IMG/VR virus record: IMGVR_UViG_2913123054_000003 | Location: 1-4,426 of that record | Direction: 5' to 3' (one strand) | Length of the DNA: 4,426 bases | Origin: a virus | Taxonomy: Duplodnaviria; Heunggongvirae; Uroviricota; Caudoviricetes | Part shown: positions 1 to 4,426 of the stretch, piece after piece | Layout of the letters: each line of letters opens with the position of its first letter | How positions within the stretch are numbered: the first letter of the stretch is position 1 | Program-made: the position numbers and the translations under genes | The notes under the pieces: model-generated | The model's input: only the letters and a program-made list of their open reading frames with translations | The model's database searches: none | What the model was told of the DNA's origin: nothing

Positions 1-405
1 AACCATCTGGCGGCGGCTATCGGGAATCGCCTGCTGAAAGATGGCCAGACAGTGATTGTGGTTACCGTGGCTGATGTCATGAGTGCTCTACACGCCAGCT
101 ATGACGACGGGCAATCAGGCGAAAAATTTTTGCGGGAACTGTGCGAAGTGGATCTGCTGGTTCTTGATGAAATTGGCATTCAGCGCGAGACAAAAAACGA
201 GCAGGTGGTGCTGCACCAGATTGTTGATCGCCGGACAGCGTCGATGCGCAGCGTGGGGATGCTGACAAACCTGAACTATGAGGCCATGAAAACATTGCTC
301 GGCGAGAGGATTATGGATCGCATGACCATGAACGGCGGGCGCTGGGTGATTTTTAACTGGGAGAGCTGGCGCCCGAATGTTGGTCAGCCAGGAATTGAAA
401 AGTAA
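1..405 (+). CDS. DnaC-like replication protein (helicase loader), 5'-truncated by window edge; C-terminal ~134 aa present
   Basis: Frame 1 is open from base 1 to TAA at 403-405. Translation ([29 protein letters not shown]...[70 protein letters not shown]...) aligns by eye with the C-terminal half of E. coli DnaC as I recall it, including the Walker B-like DLLVLDEIG and the MLTN / LLGERxMDRM / WVIFNW blocks. Confidence 0.88.
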
Positions 406-427
406 TTTTTACCGGGAGGAAATTTTA

Positions 428-1177
428 ATGGAAACCGTTTTTGATGCACTGAAAGCAATGGGAAAAGCCACGTCGGTAGAACTGGCAGCGCGACTTGATA
501 TCAGTCGTGAAGAAGTGCTGAACGAGCTGTGGGAACTGAAAAAGGCTGGCTTCGTTGATAAAAGCGTATACACCTGGCGTGTGGCTGATAACAACGTTCA
601 GCAGGAACAGCCAGCACTGCCGGAAGAAACCACTACGGCAACAGTGACGAAAATTTCGGAGAGCGATTTAACTTCGACGATTGAACAACGTGGCCCACAA
701 ACGGCGGATGAACTGGCTACGCTGTTCGGTACAACATCCCGCAAAGTGGCTTCAACGCTGGCAATGGCAATCAGCAAAGGTCGTCTGATTCGCGTTAATC
801 AGAACGGTAAATTTCGTTACTGCATACCGGGCGAAAAAATTAACGATATGAGCGCGCAAAGTACTGCACTGGTGCAAGTGGGCTCGGACGCTGACAAAAA
901 CGAAAAACAGAGCGATCGCAATCGTTTTTCGCCAACAAAAAGACATGAGCAGAGCGAAGAAACTGTAGCAGACATTGTGCAGTCGCTGCCATCGTTTACC
1001 GAAACGCGAGCGGATGACCTCGTTCTGCCATCGCTGCATCTGGCAAGCCGCGAACTGCGTCGGGCGAAAGGCCATGTCCAGAAGTGGGAGCGTGTCTGCG
1101 CCGCGCTGCGAGAGTTGAACAAGCACCGGGATATTATCGCCCAGCTTTGCCAGGAGGCAACCAGTGAGCAAGATTGA
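428..1177 (+). CDS. Prophage protein with two tandem winged-helix-like modules (resembles DUF1627-family proteins found next to prophage replication genes); 249 aa
   Basis: ATG at 428 preceded by GGAGG (415-419) with 8-nt spacing; the track's upstream ATG at 377 lies inside the dnaC-like gene and has no SD. Two similar segments ([46 protein letters not shown] and [40 protein letters not shown]) look like HTH/winged-helix units. Stop TGA at 1175-1177. Confidence 0.75.
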
Positions 1178-1185
1178 CTACCAGG
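1153..1185 (+). repeat. Gene-junction linker repeat, copy 1 (33 bp: SD + GTG start + first codons of downstream gene / last codons of upstream gene)
   Basis: ggaggcaaccagtgagcaagattgactaccagg matches 1609-1641 at 31/33 positions. Confidence 0.85.
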
Positions 1186-1370
1186 AATTGGCTGCTGCTA
1201 ACGCTTTCTTGGCGGATGTGCGGGCTGGGGCGTTTAACGACCTTTGCGCGGCGTTTGTCAGGCACGCAAAAATTGCAGGACTGGACGATGGCGGTCTCGT
1301 TACGGTGAAAGAAGCGACTGATGCGTTGCTGCACTGTGCAGAACAGCTTCGGGAGGGATTCAAGCAATGA
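1164..1370 (+). CDS. Small protein (68 aa) carrying the Ea22-like leader (MSKIDYQEL) joined to a segment resembling the C-terminal module of the downstream 213-aa Ea22-like protein
   Basis: GTG start at 1164 with AGGAGG (1152-1157) 6 nt upstream; overlaps the upstream stop by 14 nt. AFLADVRAG...[10 protein letters not shown] resembles AFLAEVRAQG...ICDELAAQLRKG near the C-terminus of the 1620..2261 protein. Stop TGA at 1368-1370 overlaps the next ATG (ATGA). Confidence 0.6.
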
Positions 1371-1633
1371 GTGAATCAAAATGCCAGGTTTATGGCAACA
1401 AGATAGAACCGTGTACGGCCCTGGCAAAATCCCTTGAGCATGATGCTGAATACACGACGCGAAAAGGTTTGCTGATATACAAAATCTATAACCATGAATT
1501 AATTCATTCACAAGACCTGATCATGCTGCGGTCAGGCGAGTTTTCTAAATCGCCGATTCGAATTTCATTTTGCCCGTTCTGTGGTGAAAGTCTGAAAACG
1601 TGGGAAGCGGAGGCAACCAGTGAGCAAAATTAA
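1367..1633 (+). CDS. Small Cys-rich protein, putative zinc-ribbon (88 aa)
   Basis: ATG at 1367 overlaps the upstream stop (ATGA); GGGAGGG at 1351-1357. Cys pattern C6, C16 ... C69-x2-C72 (FCPFCG). C-terminus EATSEQN repeats the C-terminus (EATSEQD) of the 428..1177 protein. Confidence 0.7.
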   Translation: MSESKCQVYGNKIEPCTALAKSLEHDAEYTTRKGLLIYKIYNHELIHSQDLIMLRSGEFSKSPIRISFCPFCGESLKTWEAEATSEQN

Positions 1634-1641
1634 CTACCAGG
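1609..1641 (+). repeat. Gene-junction linker repeat, copy 2
   Basis: ggaggcaaccagtgagcaaaattaactaccagg; differs from copy 1 at two positions (g/a, g/a). Same 14-nt overlap geometry between stop and GTG start. Confidence 0.85.
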
Positions 1642-2261
1642 TACTACGTGAGATAGCAAAACAGGCAACACAGGGCGAATGGGTCGCATTTATTTCGACG
1701 GGTACTGGTACGTATGCGGTGCATACGCCCGGTGATAAACGATGTGAAGACGTTATCAAATGGACCGGCTTTGACGGACAGAAAAACGCAGAGAACAACG
1801 CTCGTTATATCGCAGCTTTCAACCCTGCAGTAGTGCAGGCACTGCTGGATGAGCGGGAAGCCCAAAGCAAACGCATTGCAGAGATGGAGACTAATCTTGC
1901 GGCGCTGGCAGCGGAGAATGCGAGACTGAAGGTGATGTGTGAGGACCGCCGCAGGTTCATCATGAAAGGGGTGCAACTGGGGTATATCAAGGTGCCAAAA
2001 GCGGAAACAGATCCGGACCTTGAGACAATTCGTATTGCTATATCACCACAAAAGCCCATTCCAGCCACCGATGCTTTTTTGGCTGAAGTAAGGGCGCAGG
2101 GGGTAGAGATGATGCGCGAACACCCATCAATCAAACTTTGCTCTTTGACGCACATATGTGATGAGTTAGCCGCCCAGCTTCGCAAAGGAGAGCTGCATAT
2201 GATGTTTGACGCTGGCATTCACATCAAAGGAGAAGAGCATGGAAATAAAACCAGAAGATGA
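1620..2261 (+). CDS. Ead/Ea22-like family prophage protein with central coiled coil (213 aa)
   Basis: GTG start at 1620 with GGAGG (1609-1613) 6 nt upstream, inside a 33-bp repeat of the 1153-1185 junction. N-terminus MSKINYQVLREIAKQATQGEW and the IAAFNPAVVQALLDEREAQSKRIAEMETNLAALAAENARLK heptad-like stretch fit my recollection of Ead/Ea22-like proteins. Stop TGA at 2259-2261. Confidence 0.72.
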   Translation: MSKINYQVLREIAKQATQGEWVAFISTGTGTYAVHTPGDKRCEDVIKWTGFDGQKNAENNARYIAAFNPAVVQALLDEREAQSKRIAEMETNLAALAAENARLKVMCEDRRRFIMKGVQLGYIKVPKAETDPDLETIRIAISPQKPIPATDAFLAEVRAQGVEMMREHPSIKLCSLTHICDELAAQLRKGELHMMFDAGIHIKGEEHGNKTRR

Positions 2262-2595
2262 GTTAAGTAATATTGTTTTATTTCCGGTAAAAGAGGATGA
2301 CCCACGTAATCAGGTTAATTTTCTTTATGAGCCATCGGAAAGACCATATTGCCATCATGCCTCTGTCCGGGTTGACGAAAAAGAGCGTCAGGTCCGCTGT
2401 AAAATCTGCGGTGCAGTTGTGGAGCCATTTGACTGGATGCTCTCTGTGGCGAAAAGAGAAACCAGACTGGCAGATGATGTAAGGCTATTGCTCCAGGAGG
2501 AACAGGAAAGGCGAAAAAATATAGAAAAGCTAATTCAGATTGAGCGTAACGCGAAAGCGCGGATACGCAGAGCGACAAAATCCAGAACTGAATAA
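2239..2595 (+). CDS. Hypothetical Cys/His-containing protein, possible zinc-binding, with basic coiled-coil C-terminus (118 aa)
   Basis: ATG at 2239 (MEIKPEDEL...) with AGGAG at 2228-2232, 6-nt spacing; preferred over the track's ATG at 2206, which has no SD. Overlaps the upstream gene by 23 nt. Motif YCHH...x14...CKIC. Stop TAA at 2593-2595. Confidence 0.7.
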   Translation: MEIKPEDELSNIVLFPVKEDDPRNQVNFLYEPSERPYCHHASVRVDEKERQVRCKICGAVVEPFDWMLSVAKRETRLADDVRLLLQEEQERRKNIEKLIQIERNAKARIRRATKSRTE

Positions 2596-2661
2596 TTAAA
2601 TTTAGTGCTGTAAATAAAGTTTAATCCTTAACCGGAGGGATTTCTTCACCCTCAAAACATC

Positions 2662-2695
2662 AGGAGGCCGCCCGAAAGGGCGGTAATGAAAAATG
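2662..2695 (+). promoter_or_regulatory. Translation-initiation region with a GNRA hairpin between the SD and the start codon
   Basis: AGGAGG at 2662-2667 is followed directly by a perfect 6-bp stem CCGCCC (2668-2673) / GGGCGG (2678-2683) closing a GAAA loop (2674-2677), then 9 nt to ATG 2693. Linear SD-ATG distance is 25 nt; folded, it is about 9 nt. No U-run follows, so it is not a canonical intrinsic terminator. Confidence 0.45.
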
Positions 2696-3208
2696 ACAGA
2701 ATTAACCAAAGAGCAATTAATCGAAGAAGCCAAATTAAAAATAGCGATTGCGAAATGCCACCCCAATTCAGGGATGGCACGGGTAGAGGGCGAGTTATTC
2801 AAAATTGCACTGGCATCGCTGGAAGCAGAACCGATAGCGTGGGTATGCGGAGAAAACATAATCCTGTTTAATCCTGACACAGTTGAAGCATATGCAAAAC
2901 GTGCGGAGATATCACCTAAACCACTATTCGCCGCCCCGCCAGTGCTACCTGATAGACCGGTAGTGTCGCTGGAAGCAGAGCCGGTTGTAGACAGCGAGTG
3001 GTGGACGCTCTTACGGCAGTTCCTGATTGAACTTCAGGATCGCCGCAAAAACAGCATTTCTGAATCTGGAATCCGTGCTGAAACCCTGAACGATTTAATA
3101 CGACATATTGACAGAAACCTGGATATTGACGCGATGAAATCGCCGTTTGAACTGTCATCTGAAATTGTGGATTACGTTAATAAGCAACTGCGCAAGGAGA
3201 ATGCGTAA
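2693..3208 (+). CDS. Hypothetical prophage protein (171 aa) with an N-terminal module shared with the downstream DUF551-like protein
   Basis: ATG at 2693; long ORF with enterobacterial-like codon usage. Shares FKIALASLEAEPIAW and LFAAPP with the 3797..4297 protein; SLEAEP recurs internally (VVSLEAEPVV). Stop TAA at 3206-3208 overlaps the next ATG (TAATG). Confidence 0.75.
   Translation: MTELTKEQLIEEAKLKIAIAKCHPNSGMARVEGELFKIALASLEAEPIAWVCGENIILFNPDTVEAYAKRAEISPKPLFAAPPVLPDRPVVSLEAEPVVDSEWWTLLRQFLIELQDRRKNSISESGIRAETLNDLIRHIDRNLDIDAMKSPFELSSEIVDYVNKQLRKENA
2804..2832 (+). repeat. Module repeat copy A encoding IALASLEAEP (29 bp)
   Basis: attgcactggcatcgctggaagcagaacc matches 3911-3939 at 26/29. 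A 17-bp sub-copy (tcgctggaagcagagcc) recurs at 2966-2982 inside the same gene. Confidence 0.75.
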
Positions 3209-3384
3209 TGCAGGTGGCATTTGTTGGCTTATTACCGCACCCGATCCGCCTTTGGGCGGATATGTCACTCATAAAATCGCATTTTTTTACTACTGATGGC
3301 GGCATCCCGGCACCAAAGCGCCGCCATACAGGTATTGCAGCGGCACGACGTGCAGCAAAGAAACGCAGGAGAGCAAAACGATGA
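3208..3384 (+). CDS. Small hypothetical protein (58 aa) with strongly basic C-terminus; not in the ORF track (below length cutoff)
   Basis: ATG at 3208 overlapping the upstream TAA; GGAG at 3196-3199, 8-nt spacing. My translation: MQVAFVGLLPHPIRLWADMSLIKSHFFTTDGGIPAPKRRHTGIAAARRAAKKRRRAKR. Stop TGA at 3382-3384 overlaps the next ATG at 3381 (ATGA). Contains two GC-rich inverted repeats, so the region could instead be structured non-coding RNA. Confidence 0.35.
   Translation: MQVAFVGLLPHPIRLWADMSLIKSHFFTTDGGIPAPKRRHTGIAAARRAAKKRRRAKR
3244..3261. other. GC-rich inverted repeat (7-bp stem ATCCGCC/GGCGGAT, 4-nt loop)
   Basis: Perfect complementarity read directly from the sequence. The nearest T-run (3283-3289) is about 21 nt downstream, so it is not a canonical terminator. 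Confidence 0.5.
3296..3327. other. GC-rich inverted repeat (8-bp stem ATGGCGGC/GCCGCCAT, 16-nt loop)
   Basis: Perfect 8-bp arms with the same GGCGG/CCGCC core as the hairpins at 2668-2683 and 3244-3261. Confidence 0.45.
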
Positions 3385-3575
3385 AAAACCGTAAAGCAAA
3401 GATTCTGTTAGCTCGCAGAAACGGTGTTGGGGTCTGGCGATGGTTGAGGATTAGTAACAGACGAGTGAGGTTGACGGGGTGTTGCGGGGTGATGGGTCAC
3501 AGCTGTTGCAAAAAGCCCAGCGCGGCACAAAACCGCTGGAGAAATCACAGTTCTAAGCAAATTAAATGGGAGTGA
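3381..3575 (+). CDS. Small basic Arg/Trp/Cys-rich hypothetical protein (64 aa)
   Basis: ATG at 3381 with AGGAG at 3367-3371, 9-nt spacing; coupled to both neighbours (ATGA upstream, 1-nt gap downstream). Rich in rare Arg/Gly codons (AGA, AGG, CGA, GGG), so coding status is uncertain. Confidence 0.35.
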   Translation: MKNRKAKILLARRNGVGVWRWLRISNRRVRLTGCCGVMGHSCCKKPSAAQNRWRNHSSKQIKWE

Positions 3576-3576
3576 T

Positions 3577-3795
3577 ATGACTACACTATTCAGGAAAAAT
3601 TATCCGCGAAAGAGCAGAGCAACAGAATTCCTGTTTCTCATTCTGTTTATCGTGTTGATGACACCGATATTCCCGCTAATTTTTGTCTGGGTAATCGGGA
3701 AAATAATTGAGCCAGTTATTGAATTGTATAACGACGTGGTATGGGCGTCGTTCAACACACTGCACAATAAAATTAATCCGTATAAGGAAAACTGA
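3577..3795 (+). CDS. Small membrane protein (72 aa) with one predicted transmembrane helix
   Basis: ATG at 3577 one nt after the upstream TGA; GGGAG at 3568-3572 (short 4-nt spacing). Hydrophobic stretch FLFLILFIVLMTPIFPLIFVWVIG. Visibly more AT-rich than flanking genes. Stop TGA at 3793-3795, 1 nt before the next ATG. Confidence 0.5.
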   Translation: MTTLFRKNYPRKSRATEFLFLILFIVLMTPIFPLIFVWVIGKIIEPVIELYNDVVWASFNTLHNKINPYKEN

Positions 3796-3796
3796 T

Positions 3797-4297
3797 ATGG
3801 CAACTATTACCAGAGAAAGCGCAGAGATTAAATCATTCATCACTGGTTTTCTGAGCGATTCGGCGCACGATAACCAATCCTCAAACAGCCTGCTTGCCAA
3901 TGTGTTTCGTATTGCGCTGGCATCGTTGGAAGCAGAGCCAGTGGCATATCAGTATCGCCAGTGGGATGCAGAATATGATGAATGGGGAGAATGGGAAGAT
4001 TGCGGAGAATGCGTTTACGAAGGATTTGTTGAGGAAGAGAAATGTCAGGGGGCAGGTGTTCAGACCCGTAAGCTATATGCCGCGCCGCCAATTTCGGTAA
4101 CTCCGGATGGTTGGATAAGCCGTAGTGAGCGAATGCCGAACGACGCGCAGTGGTGCGTAGTGAACACAGAATACGGGTATTACGTGCAATGCTGGTCTGA
4201 AGGTCAAGGGTGGCTTGGTGATGATATCAGTATCCCTGAATGCGATGTAATCAATTGGATGCCTCTACCAGAACCGCCGCAGGAGGTGAATCAATGA
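3797..4297 (+). CDS. DUF551-like prophage protein (166 aa) with N-terminal IALASLEAEP module
   Basis: ATG at 3797 with AAGGA at 3785-3789, 7-nt spacing; the track's ATG at 3707 lies inside the upstream gene. C-terminal DGWISRSERMPNDAQWCVV...CDVINWMPLPEPP matches my recollection of the DUF551 signature (WIS..ER.P ... W.PLPEPP). Stop TGA at 4295-4297 overlaps the next ATG. Confidence 0.8.
   Translation: MATITRESAEIKSFITGFLSDSAHDNQSSNSLLANVFRIALASLEAEPVAYQYRQWDAEYDEWGEWEDCGECVYEGFVEEEKCQGAGVQTRKLYAAPPISVTPDGWISRSERMPNDAQWCVVNTEYGYYVQCWSEGQGWLGDDISIPECDVINWMPLPEPPQEVNQ
3911..3939 (+). repeat. Module repeat copy B encoding IALASLEAEP (29 bp), in the DUF551-like gene
   Basis: attgcgctggcatcgttggaagcagagcc; 26/29 identical to 2804-2832. 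Confidence 0.75.
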
Positions 4298-4377
4298 CCT
4301 GGCCTGAAGCATTCACAACGGTAGGAATTGCAATGGTGGTGGCGCTGGTGGTGTATTCGATTTGCCGCTGGGGATAA
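4294..4377 (+). CDS. Very small hydrophobic peptide (27 aa), single predicted TM helix; not in the ORF track
   Basis: ATG at 4294 overlapping the upstream stop (ATGA); strong AGGAGG at 4281-4286, 7-nt spacing. My translation: MTWPEAFTTVGIAMVVALVVYSICRWG, stop TAA at 4375-4377. Confidence 0.35.
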   Translation: MTWPEAFTTVGIAMVVALVVYSICRWG

Positions 4378-4426
4378 AAACGATTTGCGGGAAAAGGATA
4401 GTTAAGTAGAATTGCTGCGGGTGCTT

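Follow-up and report, generated by a model that had tools for sequence, protein, structure and literature searches.

Four small genes in the early accessory block of an Escherichia coli-type lambdoid prophage: a basic pair and two single-helix membrane peptides

The early regions of lambdoid phages carry accessory clusters of the 'ea', exo-xis and 'nin' type, represented by eaA-eaI in P22, by orf60a/63/61/73, ea22 and ea8.5 in lambda, by L0065-L0068 in 933W and by ECs_1164-ECs_1168 in the Sakai prophage Sp5. These clusters are localized either between the recombination genes and xis/int or between the replication genes and nin. Their genes are co-oriented and tightly packed with overlapping stops and starts, they are shuffled as mosaics, and their functions are mostly unknown. 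The small early proteins of phages also include the arginine-rich-motif (ARM) RNA-binding peptides N of lambda and P22 and Nun of HK022, and the early-expressed single-pass membrane peptides T4 Imm/Sp, HK97 gp15, P22 SieA and Qin YdfD. The DNA analysed here (positions 1 to 4,426 of the IMG/VR virus record IMGVR_UViG_2913123054_000003, Caudoviricetes; hereafter the window, in its full length of 4,426 nucleotides) represents the early region of a lambdoid prophage of the E. coli type and contains a block of this kind. We have studied four small open reading frames (ORFs) of this block, named ORF58, ORF64, ORF72 and ORF27 according to the number of residues encoded. The first two encode basic proteins and the other two membrane peptides.

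Coding status and organisation of the four ORFs

Homologues were collected in three sets: 80 IMG/VR loci retrieved with ORF64 (set 1), 119 loci retrieved independently via an unrelated DNA motif (set 2, the independent set) and annotated RefSeq and GenBank regions (set 3). Intactness was scored on homologues retrieved by nucleotide similarity and counted as distinct DNA versions. The ratio of nonsynonymous to synonymous differences (pN/pS) was obtained from Nei-Gojobori counts bootstrapped over codons, with 95% intervals. For each of the four ORFs the ratio is lower in the called frame than in both shifted frames (Table 1). Conserved protein motifs still vary synonymously, as seen in codons 1-8 of ORF64 (pS 0.29, pN 0.02), and the constraint therefore bears on the protein and not on the DNA; the insertions and deletions found in the ORFs are multiples of three. 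On the evidence of these sequence comparisons, each of the four is a true gene that encodes a protein and is under purifying selection. A preliminary description of the window had proposed this comparison of ORF conservation and of synonymous against nonsynonymous substitutions, and had considered that frameshifts or stops in otherwise conserved DNA of related prophages would indicate a non-coding function. As a rule the relatives keep the frames open. The exceptions are rare and consist of a few nonsense or frameshift alleles of ORF27, one frameshifted DUF4014 sublineage (the family of ORF72, see below) and a few frameshifted ORF58 and ORF64 proteins in the databases.

The four ORFs belong to an unbroken chain of six genes (2693-4377) that follows a single intergenic gap of 97 nt. 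The stop of the 171-aa gene overlaps the start of ORF58 in the sequence TAATG (3206-3210) and ORF58 overlaps ORF64 in ATGA (3381-3384). The junctions of ORF64 with ORF72 (3573-3579) and of ORF72 with the DUF551-domain gene (3793-3799) both read TGAtATG, with a gap of 1 nt, and the DUF551 gene overlaps ORF27 in ATGA (4294-4297). A Shine-Dalgarno sequence (SD) is located 5-10 nt before every chained start, within the final codons of the preceding gene (in chain order AAGGAG, AGGAG, GGGAG, AAGGA and AGGAGGTGA). If translational coupling is defined geometrically, by a stop/start overlap or a gap of at most 1 nt together with an SD inside the upstream ORF, five consecutive junctions display this geometry. 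The two ATGA junctions are kept in relatives, that of DUF551 and ORF27 with its strong SD. Part of the conservation of C-terminal residues is explained by the SD of the next gene being written there: the RRRAKR residues of ORF58 are encoded by CGC AGG AGA GCA AAA CGA, which contains the ORF64 SD, and the QEVNQ residues of the DUF551 gene by CAG GAG GTG AAT CAA, which contains the ORF27 SD. The coordinates and junctions given in the preliminary description were exact, the SDs that it had noted are present, and the highly basic and single-helix membrane characters that it had attributed to two ORFs each are borne out by the isoelectric points (pI) and hydropathy values reported below.

The genes of the block are always co-oriented with their neighbours and occur in two operon positions. 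The pL-type position, between the recombination genes (exo/bet/abc2) and xis/int, was found in at least 27 loci, including 933W L0065-L0068 and Sakai Sp5 ECs_1164-1168. The pR-type position, after the replication genes (P/DnaC/DUF1627), was found in at least 18 loci and is that of the window. L0067 of 933W and ECs_1166 are DUF4014 proteins and ECs_1168 is a homologue of ORF64; the window block differs from these two clusters by its location on the pR side. The block is a mosaic, and coverage of positions 3100-4426 stays below 80% in every E. coli genome. It is a typical lambdoid accessory cluster, which will not surprise a specialist, and three of its four small ORFs (ORF58, ORF64 and ORF72) already belong to PHROG or Pfam families.

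Table 1. Features of the window, with the intactness and pN/pS of the four small ORFs (95% intervals in brackets).
Feature	Position	Strand	Description	Family	Intact versions	pN/pS, called frame	pN/pS, shifted frames
Genes before the 97-nt gap			in order: DnaC-like gene tail, DUF1627 gene, two small genes, Ead/Ea22 gene, zinc-ribbon gene
Start cassette	2662..2692	+	AGGAG 2662-2666; 7-bp G+C stem with GAAA loop 2667-2684; 8 nt; ATG 2693
171-aa gene	2693..3208	+	heads the coupled chain	phrog_5117 (2.5e-26), phrog_660 (1.5e-22)
ORF58	3208..3384	+	58-aa basic protein	phrog_13831	44/44 (set 1)	0.37 (0.25-0.52)	1.15, 0.83
ORF64	3381..3575	+	64-aa basic protein	phrog_1380	51/51 (set 1)	0.45 (0.32-0.60)	0.99, 0.91
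ORF72	3577..3795	+	72-aa single-pass DUF4014 membrane protein	PF13198	14/14 (set 1), 25/29 (independent set)	0.25 (0.15-0.38), 32 versions	0.65, 1.29
DUF551-domain gene	3797..4297	+	166 aa, acidic	PF04448 (36.8 bits, cut-off 22), phrog_60 (3.9e-35)
ORF27	4294..4377	+	27-aa membrane peptide, closes the block	outside all family libraries searched	26/28 (set 1), 34/38 (independent set)	0.28 (0.17-0.45), 39 distinct full-length versions	1.48, 1.62

The basic pair ORF58 and ORF64

ORF58 has a pI of 12.0, with 14 Lys and Arg for 2 Asp and Glu, and ORF64 a pI of 11.8, with 17 Lys and Arg for a single acidic residue. ORF58 aligns over its full length with phrog_13831 (E 5.9e-25, residues 1-58 on profile positions 1-58 of 58) and ORF64 over nearly its full length with phrog_1380 (E 9.3e-29, residues 1-60 on profile positions 1-60 of 62). 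Both families are narrow, with 56 and 26 protein clusters, respectively; all are labelled 'hypothetical' and come from Escherichia, Salmonella and Citrobacter. When 1.84 billion representatives were searched exhaustively with a profile of the ORF64 family, only 41 proteins were recovered, 38 of them shorter than 100 aa. Searched against the PDB sequences, the ORF58 profile and two ORF64 profiles gave chance matches or none. The N-terminal half of ORF58 is variable and its C-terminal arginine-rich helix PAPKRRHTGIAAARRAAKKRRRAKR is conserved. In ORF64 the three conserved motifs MKNRKAKxLL, R[IV]SNRR and KPSAAQNRWKNH are separated by variable segments.

The two genes form a pair. An ORF64-family gene follows ORF58 via ATGA in nearly all of the 74 ORF58 matches from the ORF64-retrieved loci, and ORF58 is followed by such a gene in 10 of 10 copies from the independent set. 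The pairing is obligate in the direction from ORF58 to ORF64, and ORF64 can occur without ORF58. Tandem ORF64-family paralogues chained by ATGA were observed in six loci (L041 at 959-1329; L043 and L036 at 2501-2871; L059, L040 and L044 at 2328-2689). In these paralogues the N-terminal MKNRKAK and the C-terminal SA[AS]QNR[RW]K are conserved and the middles are highly divergent.

AlphaFold2 models built with the family alignments predict helices, with a mean predicted local distance difference test score (pLDDT) of 64.8 for ORF58 and 59.6 for ORF64. The helix at residues 40-57 of ORF58 lies within the best-scoring blocks (mean pLDDT 77-78), and this C-terminal arginine-rich helix is the best-supported and most conserved part of the protein. 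A short arginine-rich alpha-helix, here predicted, in a small early phage protein is what ORF58 has in common with the ARM peptides; the motif is C-terminal in ORF58 and N-terminal in the ARM peptides, the region is of low complexity, and the likeness is restricted to this feature. ORF58 and ORF64 are probably cytoplasmic helical arginine-rich peptides that would bind RNA, ribosomes or DNA.

A second resemblance concerns ORF64 and the protein Sra (RpsV, 'S22'; PF08136), a 45-aa stationary-phase protein associated with the 30S subunit in Enterobacteriaceae (PMC10502375), for which the E. coli sequence was taken from K-12. Both proteins are small and very basic and have the same taxonomic range. 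Their motifs are colinear, with MK(S)NRxA[RK]..L followed by [KR]ISNx[RK] and then by a basic stretch of K/R-P/R-S/P-A. ORF64 differs by an insertion of 8 residues and by the additional motif SAAQNRWKNH. The hhalign comparison of the two families gave a probability of 45% and a P value of 2.2e-4 over 41 columns, a score equalled by column-shuffle controls in 0 of 300 and 2 of 300 trials. None of 24 ORF64-family members matched PF08136 at E<=10, which leaves ORF64 outside this Pfam family, and in a search of 6528 ORF segments with the hidden Markov model of Sra the ORF64-family members were not ranked. The best score of an Sra model against a family member was 7.5 bits, and the PDB copy searched contained no Sra chain. 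The resemblance is weak, and it is a lead, not a classification.

The membrane peptides ORF72 and ORF27

ORF72 is a member of the DUF4014 family, with a score of 91.1 bits against PF13198 (cut-off 23.2; residues 1-72 on profile positions 1-72 of 72) and a match to phrog_1832 at 1.4e-44. It contains a basic N-terminus (residues 1-17), a transmembrane segment (about residues 18-41) and a highly conserved C-terminal tail of about 31 residues. Its best 19-residue Kyte-Doolittle window, from residue 19, scores 2.87, consistent with one transmembrane helix. According to the positive-inside rule, the predicted topology is N-in/C-out in the inner membrane. The strongest constraint is found in codons 49-72 (pN 0-0.05), and its position on the C-terminal tail suggests a periplasmic or envelope partner. 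Against the PDB sequences ORF72 gave chance matches or none. It is an ordinary DUF4014 protein with nothing distinctive. Epsilon15 gp46, epsilon34 gp27, ES18 gp39 and g341c gp23 belong to DUF4014/phrog_1832; ORF72 is 52% identical to the DUF4014 proteins of Salmonella phages, which are likewise encoded just upstream of a DUF551/EaA-type gene. One DUF4014 sublineage, represented by four DNA versions (L158 at 9922, L203 at 1296, L167 at 4684 and L208 at 6821), has a common early frameshift of 1 nt, and the gene is therefore a pseudogene in some prophages.

Two functional-sounding labels are attached to DUF4014 in the databases and both are unsupported. The label 'O-polysaccharide acetyltransferase inhibitor' of the g341c homologue rests on an old name of epsilon15 gp46, which is a hypothetical protein in the current record. 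The label 'released from the phage upon host infection' was found only as a RefSeq/PHROG label, with no source in the literature searched. This search found no paper mentioning DUF4014, the genome paper of epsilon34 is silent on gp27, and queries with the ECs locus tags returned unrelated matches only.

ORF27 (MTWPEAFTTVGIAMVVALVVYSICRWG) is a single-helix membrane peptide with little beyond its helix; the best 19-residue Kyte-Doolittle window, from residue 6, scores 2.24, consistent with one transmembrane helix. Searches of Pfam, PHROG, NCBIfam and PADLOC gave no significant match for it, and the last two gave nothing meaningful for any of the small ORFs. Of 5426 complete E. coli genomes, 1634 (about 30%) contain ORF27-like DNA, in as many as 7 copies each; 91 phage records contain it as well. 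The preliminary description had expected ORF58 and ORF27 to be missed by standard annotation. This holds for ORF27, annotated in none of the 8 records inspected, and only in part for ORF58, whose homologues are annotated in 4 of 7 records (those of ORF64 in 3 of 7). In phage Min27 (L089), the 573-nt 'ORF82' (878-1450, minus strand) is annotated antisense across ORF27 and the sequence lying upstream of hokW, and is probably spurious, masking the real small gene.

ORF27 lies directly 3' of 14 of the 40 distinct DUF551 3' ends. Among 45 distinct contexts, its Trp-3 codon TGG (4300-4302) has become a stop in 4 (TAG in L005 at 3426 and in L161; TAG in L144; TGA in L109), which represents at least three independent events, with the remaining ORF conserved. 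Such recurrence could be a hint that some hosts pay a cost for the peptide; chance may also account for it. The hok/sok element (RF01794) begins 42 nt past the ORF27 stop in 9 of 14 loci tested, and its start aligns with the final 8 bases of the window. The sequences TTGCGG and TAGAAT, spaced by 17 nt at about 4385-4413, look like the hok mRNA promoter; they were not flagged by the consensus scan described below. Hok/sok is missing from several ORF27 contexts, and in L050 the block is followed instead (3728-3918) by an immunity-like module of P1/P7 type with isrK and C4 antisense RNA genes. Type I toxins (Hok/TisB/DinQ-like) are recognised by a promoter of their own together with a cis- or trans-antisense RNA and by a known toxin or RNA family; an assignment of ORF27 to them was rejected, as neither Rfam nor the protein families gave a match.

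ORF27 would act on a membrane partner as a single bare helix in the inner membrane. Like the early membrane peptides of phages and the bacterial small membrane proteins found by ribosome profiling (Ribo-seq), ORF27 and ORF72 are tiny, have one helix and are encoded among early genes; they have no sequence similarity to any of these, including T4 Imm/Sp, HK97 gp15, P22 SieA and Qin YdfD. ORF27 is a new, widespread and unannotated member of this known class of phage and bacterial membrane microproteins.

Start cassette, alternative readings and proposed role

The start codon at position 2693 is the only non-overlapping start of the block, and it is preceded by a start cassette of sequence AGGAG, GCCGCCC-GAAA-GGGCGGT, then TAAT[AG]AA..ATG. 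The hairpin forms in the RNA fold of the window. The identical cassette was found in other contexts, with a start codon 6-9 nt past the stem in 42 of 57 distinct contexts, in front of different and unrelated genes (the 171-aa type, DUF4014, and genes whose products begin with MQETKENI and MRKFKIII). It is also present in L010, L028, L035, L049, L050 and at least 119 IMG/VR contigs (L097 onward). The linear spacing between SD and ATG is about 27 nt, so that the SD would work only with the hairpin formed. The cassette is possibly a hairpin-bridged (split) ribosome-binding site and resembles those of T4 genes 38 and 25. Its interpretation as a terminator was rejected because there is no T-run.

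Two repeats were observed in the window. A 29-nt sequence encoding (I)ALASLEAEP occurs at 2804-2832 and 2954-2982 in the 171-aa gene and at 3911-3939 in the DUF551 gene; these two genes have in common an N-terminal domain containing the IALASLEAEP motif (phrog_5117/660/60). A near-identical junction of about 33 nt, GGAGGCAACCAGTGAGCAA[GA]ATT[GA]ACTACCAGG, occurs at about 1153-1185 and about 1609-1641. In each copy a gene end (EATSEQ[DN] and stop) overlaps the GTG start of an Ead/Ea22-type N-terminus (SKI[DN]YQ). This junction looks like a recombination linker between modules. A scan of the window with Rfam at E<=1 gave no match.

Taken as a whole, the best explanation, in which we have good confidence, is that the four ORFs are real early-operon genes, transcribed and translated as a chain, with the roles proposed above. 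The region would represent the distal part of an accessory ('ea'/'nin'-type) block of a delayed-early operon; in the window it comes after the replication genes and immediately precedes a hok/sok locus and the nin region. The four ORFs would have no promoter of their own and would be transcribed within the long antiterminated early transcript, on which ribosomes would re-initiate at the overlapping or 1-nt-spaced starts. Their expression would therefore be expected upon induction or infection and not in the quiescent lysogen. ORF58 and ORF64 would act in the cytoplasm through RNA, ribosome or DNA binding, the DUF4014 protein would contact an envelope target by its conserved periplasmic tail, and ORF27 would act as a helix in the inner membrane.

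Several points weigh against this explanation. No RNA structure enforcing coupling was found at the junctions, whose folds are no better than those of shuffled sequences (z-scores -0.9 to +0.7); structure-mediated coupling was rejected on this ground, and an independent initiation of each ORF is thus also possible. About 10-14% of the ORF27 and DUF4014 DNA versions are disrupted in the independent sample and, together with the frameshifted ORF58 and ORF64 proteins, they indicate that the genes are dispensable in at least some prophages. The Ribo-seq supplements for Sakai contain no entry for the Sp5 homologues and offer no direct evidence of translation, as expected if the operon is repressed and silent in lysogens; K-12 was rejected as a source of published Ribo-seq evidence because CPS-53 carries none of the four ORFs. 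The AlphaFold2 models of ORF64 and ORF58 are of low confidence (pLDDT about 60 and 65), ORF58, ORF64 and ORF27 have no link in PDB, Pfam, NCBIfam or PADLOC, and the biochemical roles of the peptides are inferred.

It could be that certain small ORFs, ORF27 and ORF58 in particular, are untranslated and owe their conservation to a role of the DNA or RNA, as recombination linkers between modules, as the region upstream of hok/sok or as ribosome-relaying spacers. The synonymous diversity at the 3' end of ORF58, which carries the ORF64 SD, is indeed about half that of the rest (pS 0.13 versus 0.27-0.41), and ORF27, with its recurrent nonsense alleles at codon 3, ends only 8 nt before the apparent hok promoter region. 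Such a role is nevertheless very improbable given that for ORF58, ORF64 and ORF27 the called frame has a pN/pS of 0.28-0.45 and both shifted frames reach about 1 or more, that indels respect the reading frame, that the ORF27 frame is kept where hok/sok is missing (upstream of xis in VT1-Sakai and of isrK/C4 in L050), and that there is neither an Rfam match nor a significant local RNA structure. It is hardly credible that ORF58 and ORF64 are decayed fragments of a larger gene, such as an HNH endonuclease or an Ea22-type protein. Their lengths vary little (51-60 aa for ORF58 and 58-64 aa for ORF64), each of the respective 44 and 51 DNA versions carries a start and an SD of its own, and the exhaustive profile search gave small proteins and no parent family, although longer PHROGs are partly covered (phrog_12350 at positions 94-150 of 155 and phrog_9263 at positions 1-58 of 230) and one protein of 102 aa (P0010) joins an Ead/Ea22 domain to ORF64. 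The HNH genes of related loci are separate and located elsewhere, after DUF4014, and the assignment of ORF64 to an HNH-endonuclease fragment was rejected for this reason.

The preliminary description had noted the AT-richness of ORF72 and had taken it to suggest a separately acquired moron. The gene is AT-rich (38.4% GC versus 48.7% in the window), but this is explained by a bias in codon positions 1-2 due to its F, I, L, N, K and Y content; at third codon positions the GC content (GC3) is 49.3%, like that of the neighbours, and does not reveal a foreign nucleotide composition. A promoter and a terminator of its own were not detected either: the search, made by consensus scan only, gave 0 sigma-70-like promoter sites in 2400-4426 (3.2 expected in shuffles) and no terminator-like site on the + strand, and gaps of 1 nt flank the gene on both sides. 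DUF4014 comes after ORF64 in no more than 13 of the 87 loci; elsewhere another gene stands in its place. ORF72 is a shuffled cassette riding inside early operons and probably not a self-expressed moron. These same data bear on the broader proposal that ORF72, by itself or together with ORF27, is a moron which the resident prophage expresses for lysogenic conversion or superinfection exclusion, in one version by inhibiting an envelope enzyme, for instance an O-antigen acetyltransferase. Its cassette behaviour, with its own hairpin/SD cassette ahead in other phages, its low GC content and the g341c annotation, made by similarity to the older epsilon15 gp46 name, speak for this proposal, and small O-antigen-altering phage proteins do exist (the Gnarl proteins, PMC12373910). 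We consider it unlikely, in view of the GC3, of the junctions, of the missing promoter- and terminator-like sites and of the state of the two database labels. Moreover, DUF4014 is common in the Shiga toxin (Stx) phages of E. coli, whose hosts do not have the Salmonella group E O-antigen, and it does not appear in the supplements of the Gnarl study, an accessory-gene screen (PMC12373910); none of the four peptides is present in these supplements.

For the chained early genes proposed here, the likely pay-off would be host takeover or the exclusion of competing phages in lytic growth and, by analogy with the early membrane peptides of other phages, the most plausible role of ORF72 and ORF27 would be competitor exclusion or envelope modulation during this growth. 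The analysis has direct consequences for annotation: ORF27, carried by about 30% of complete E. coli genomes, Stx phages included, has no annotation in any of the records inspected, the ORF58 homologue is left unannotated in 933W and Sakai Sp5, AT-richness is removed as a mark of a moron, and two DUF4014 labels are flagged as unsupported. A bolder proposal, which we regard as doubtful, is that the ORF64 family is a phage relative or mimic of Sra and, separately, that ORF27 is an unrecognised membrane microprotein of about 30% of E. coli genomes. If this were true, ORF64 and its obligate partner ORF58, made early after induction, would dock on ribosomes or rRNA and bias or protect translation during lytic growth, and the enterobacteria-restricted sra and the ORF64 phage family would have a common origin. 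The obligate arginine-rich early pair ORF58/ORF64 may act on ribosomes or RNA, a question that is cheaply approachable by experiment.

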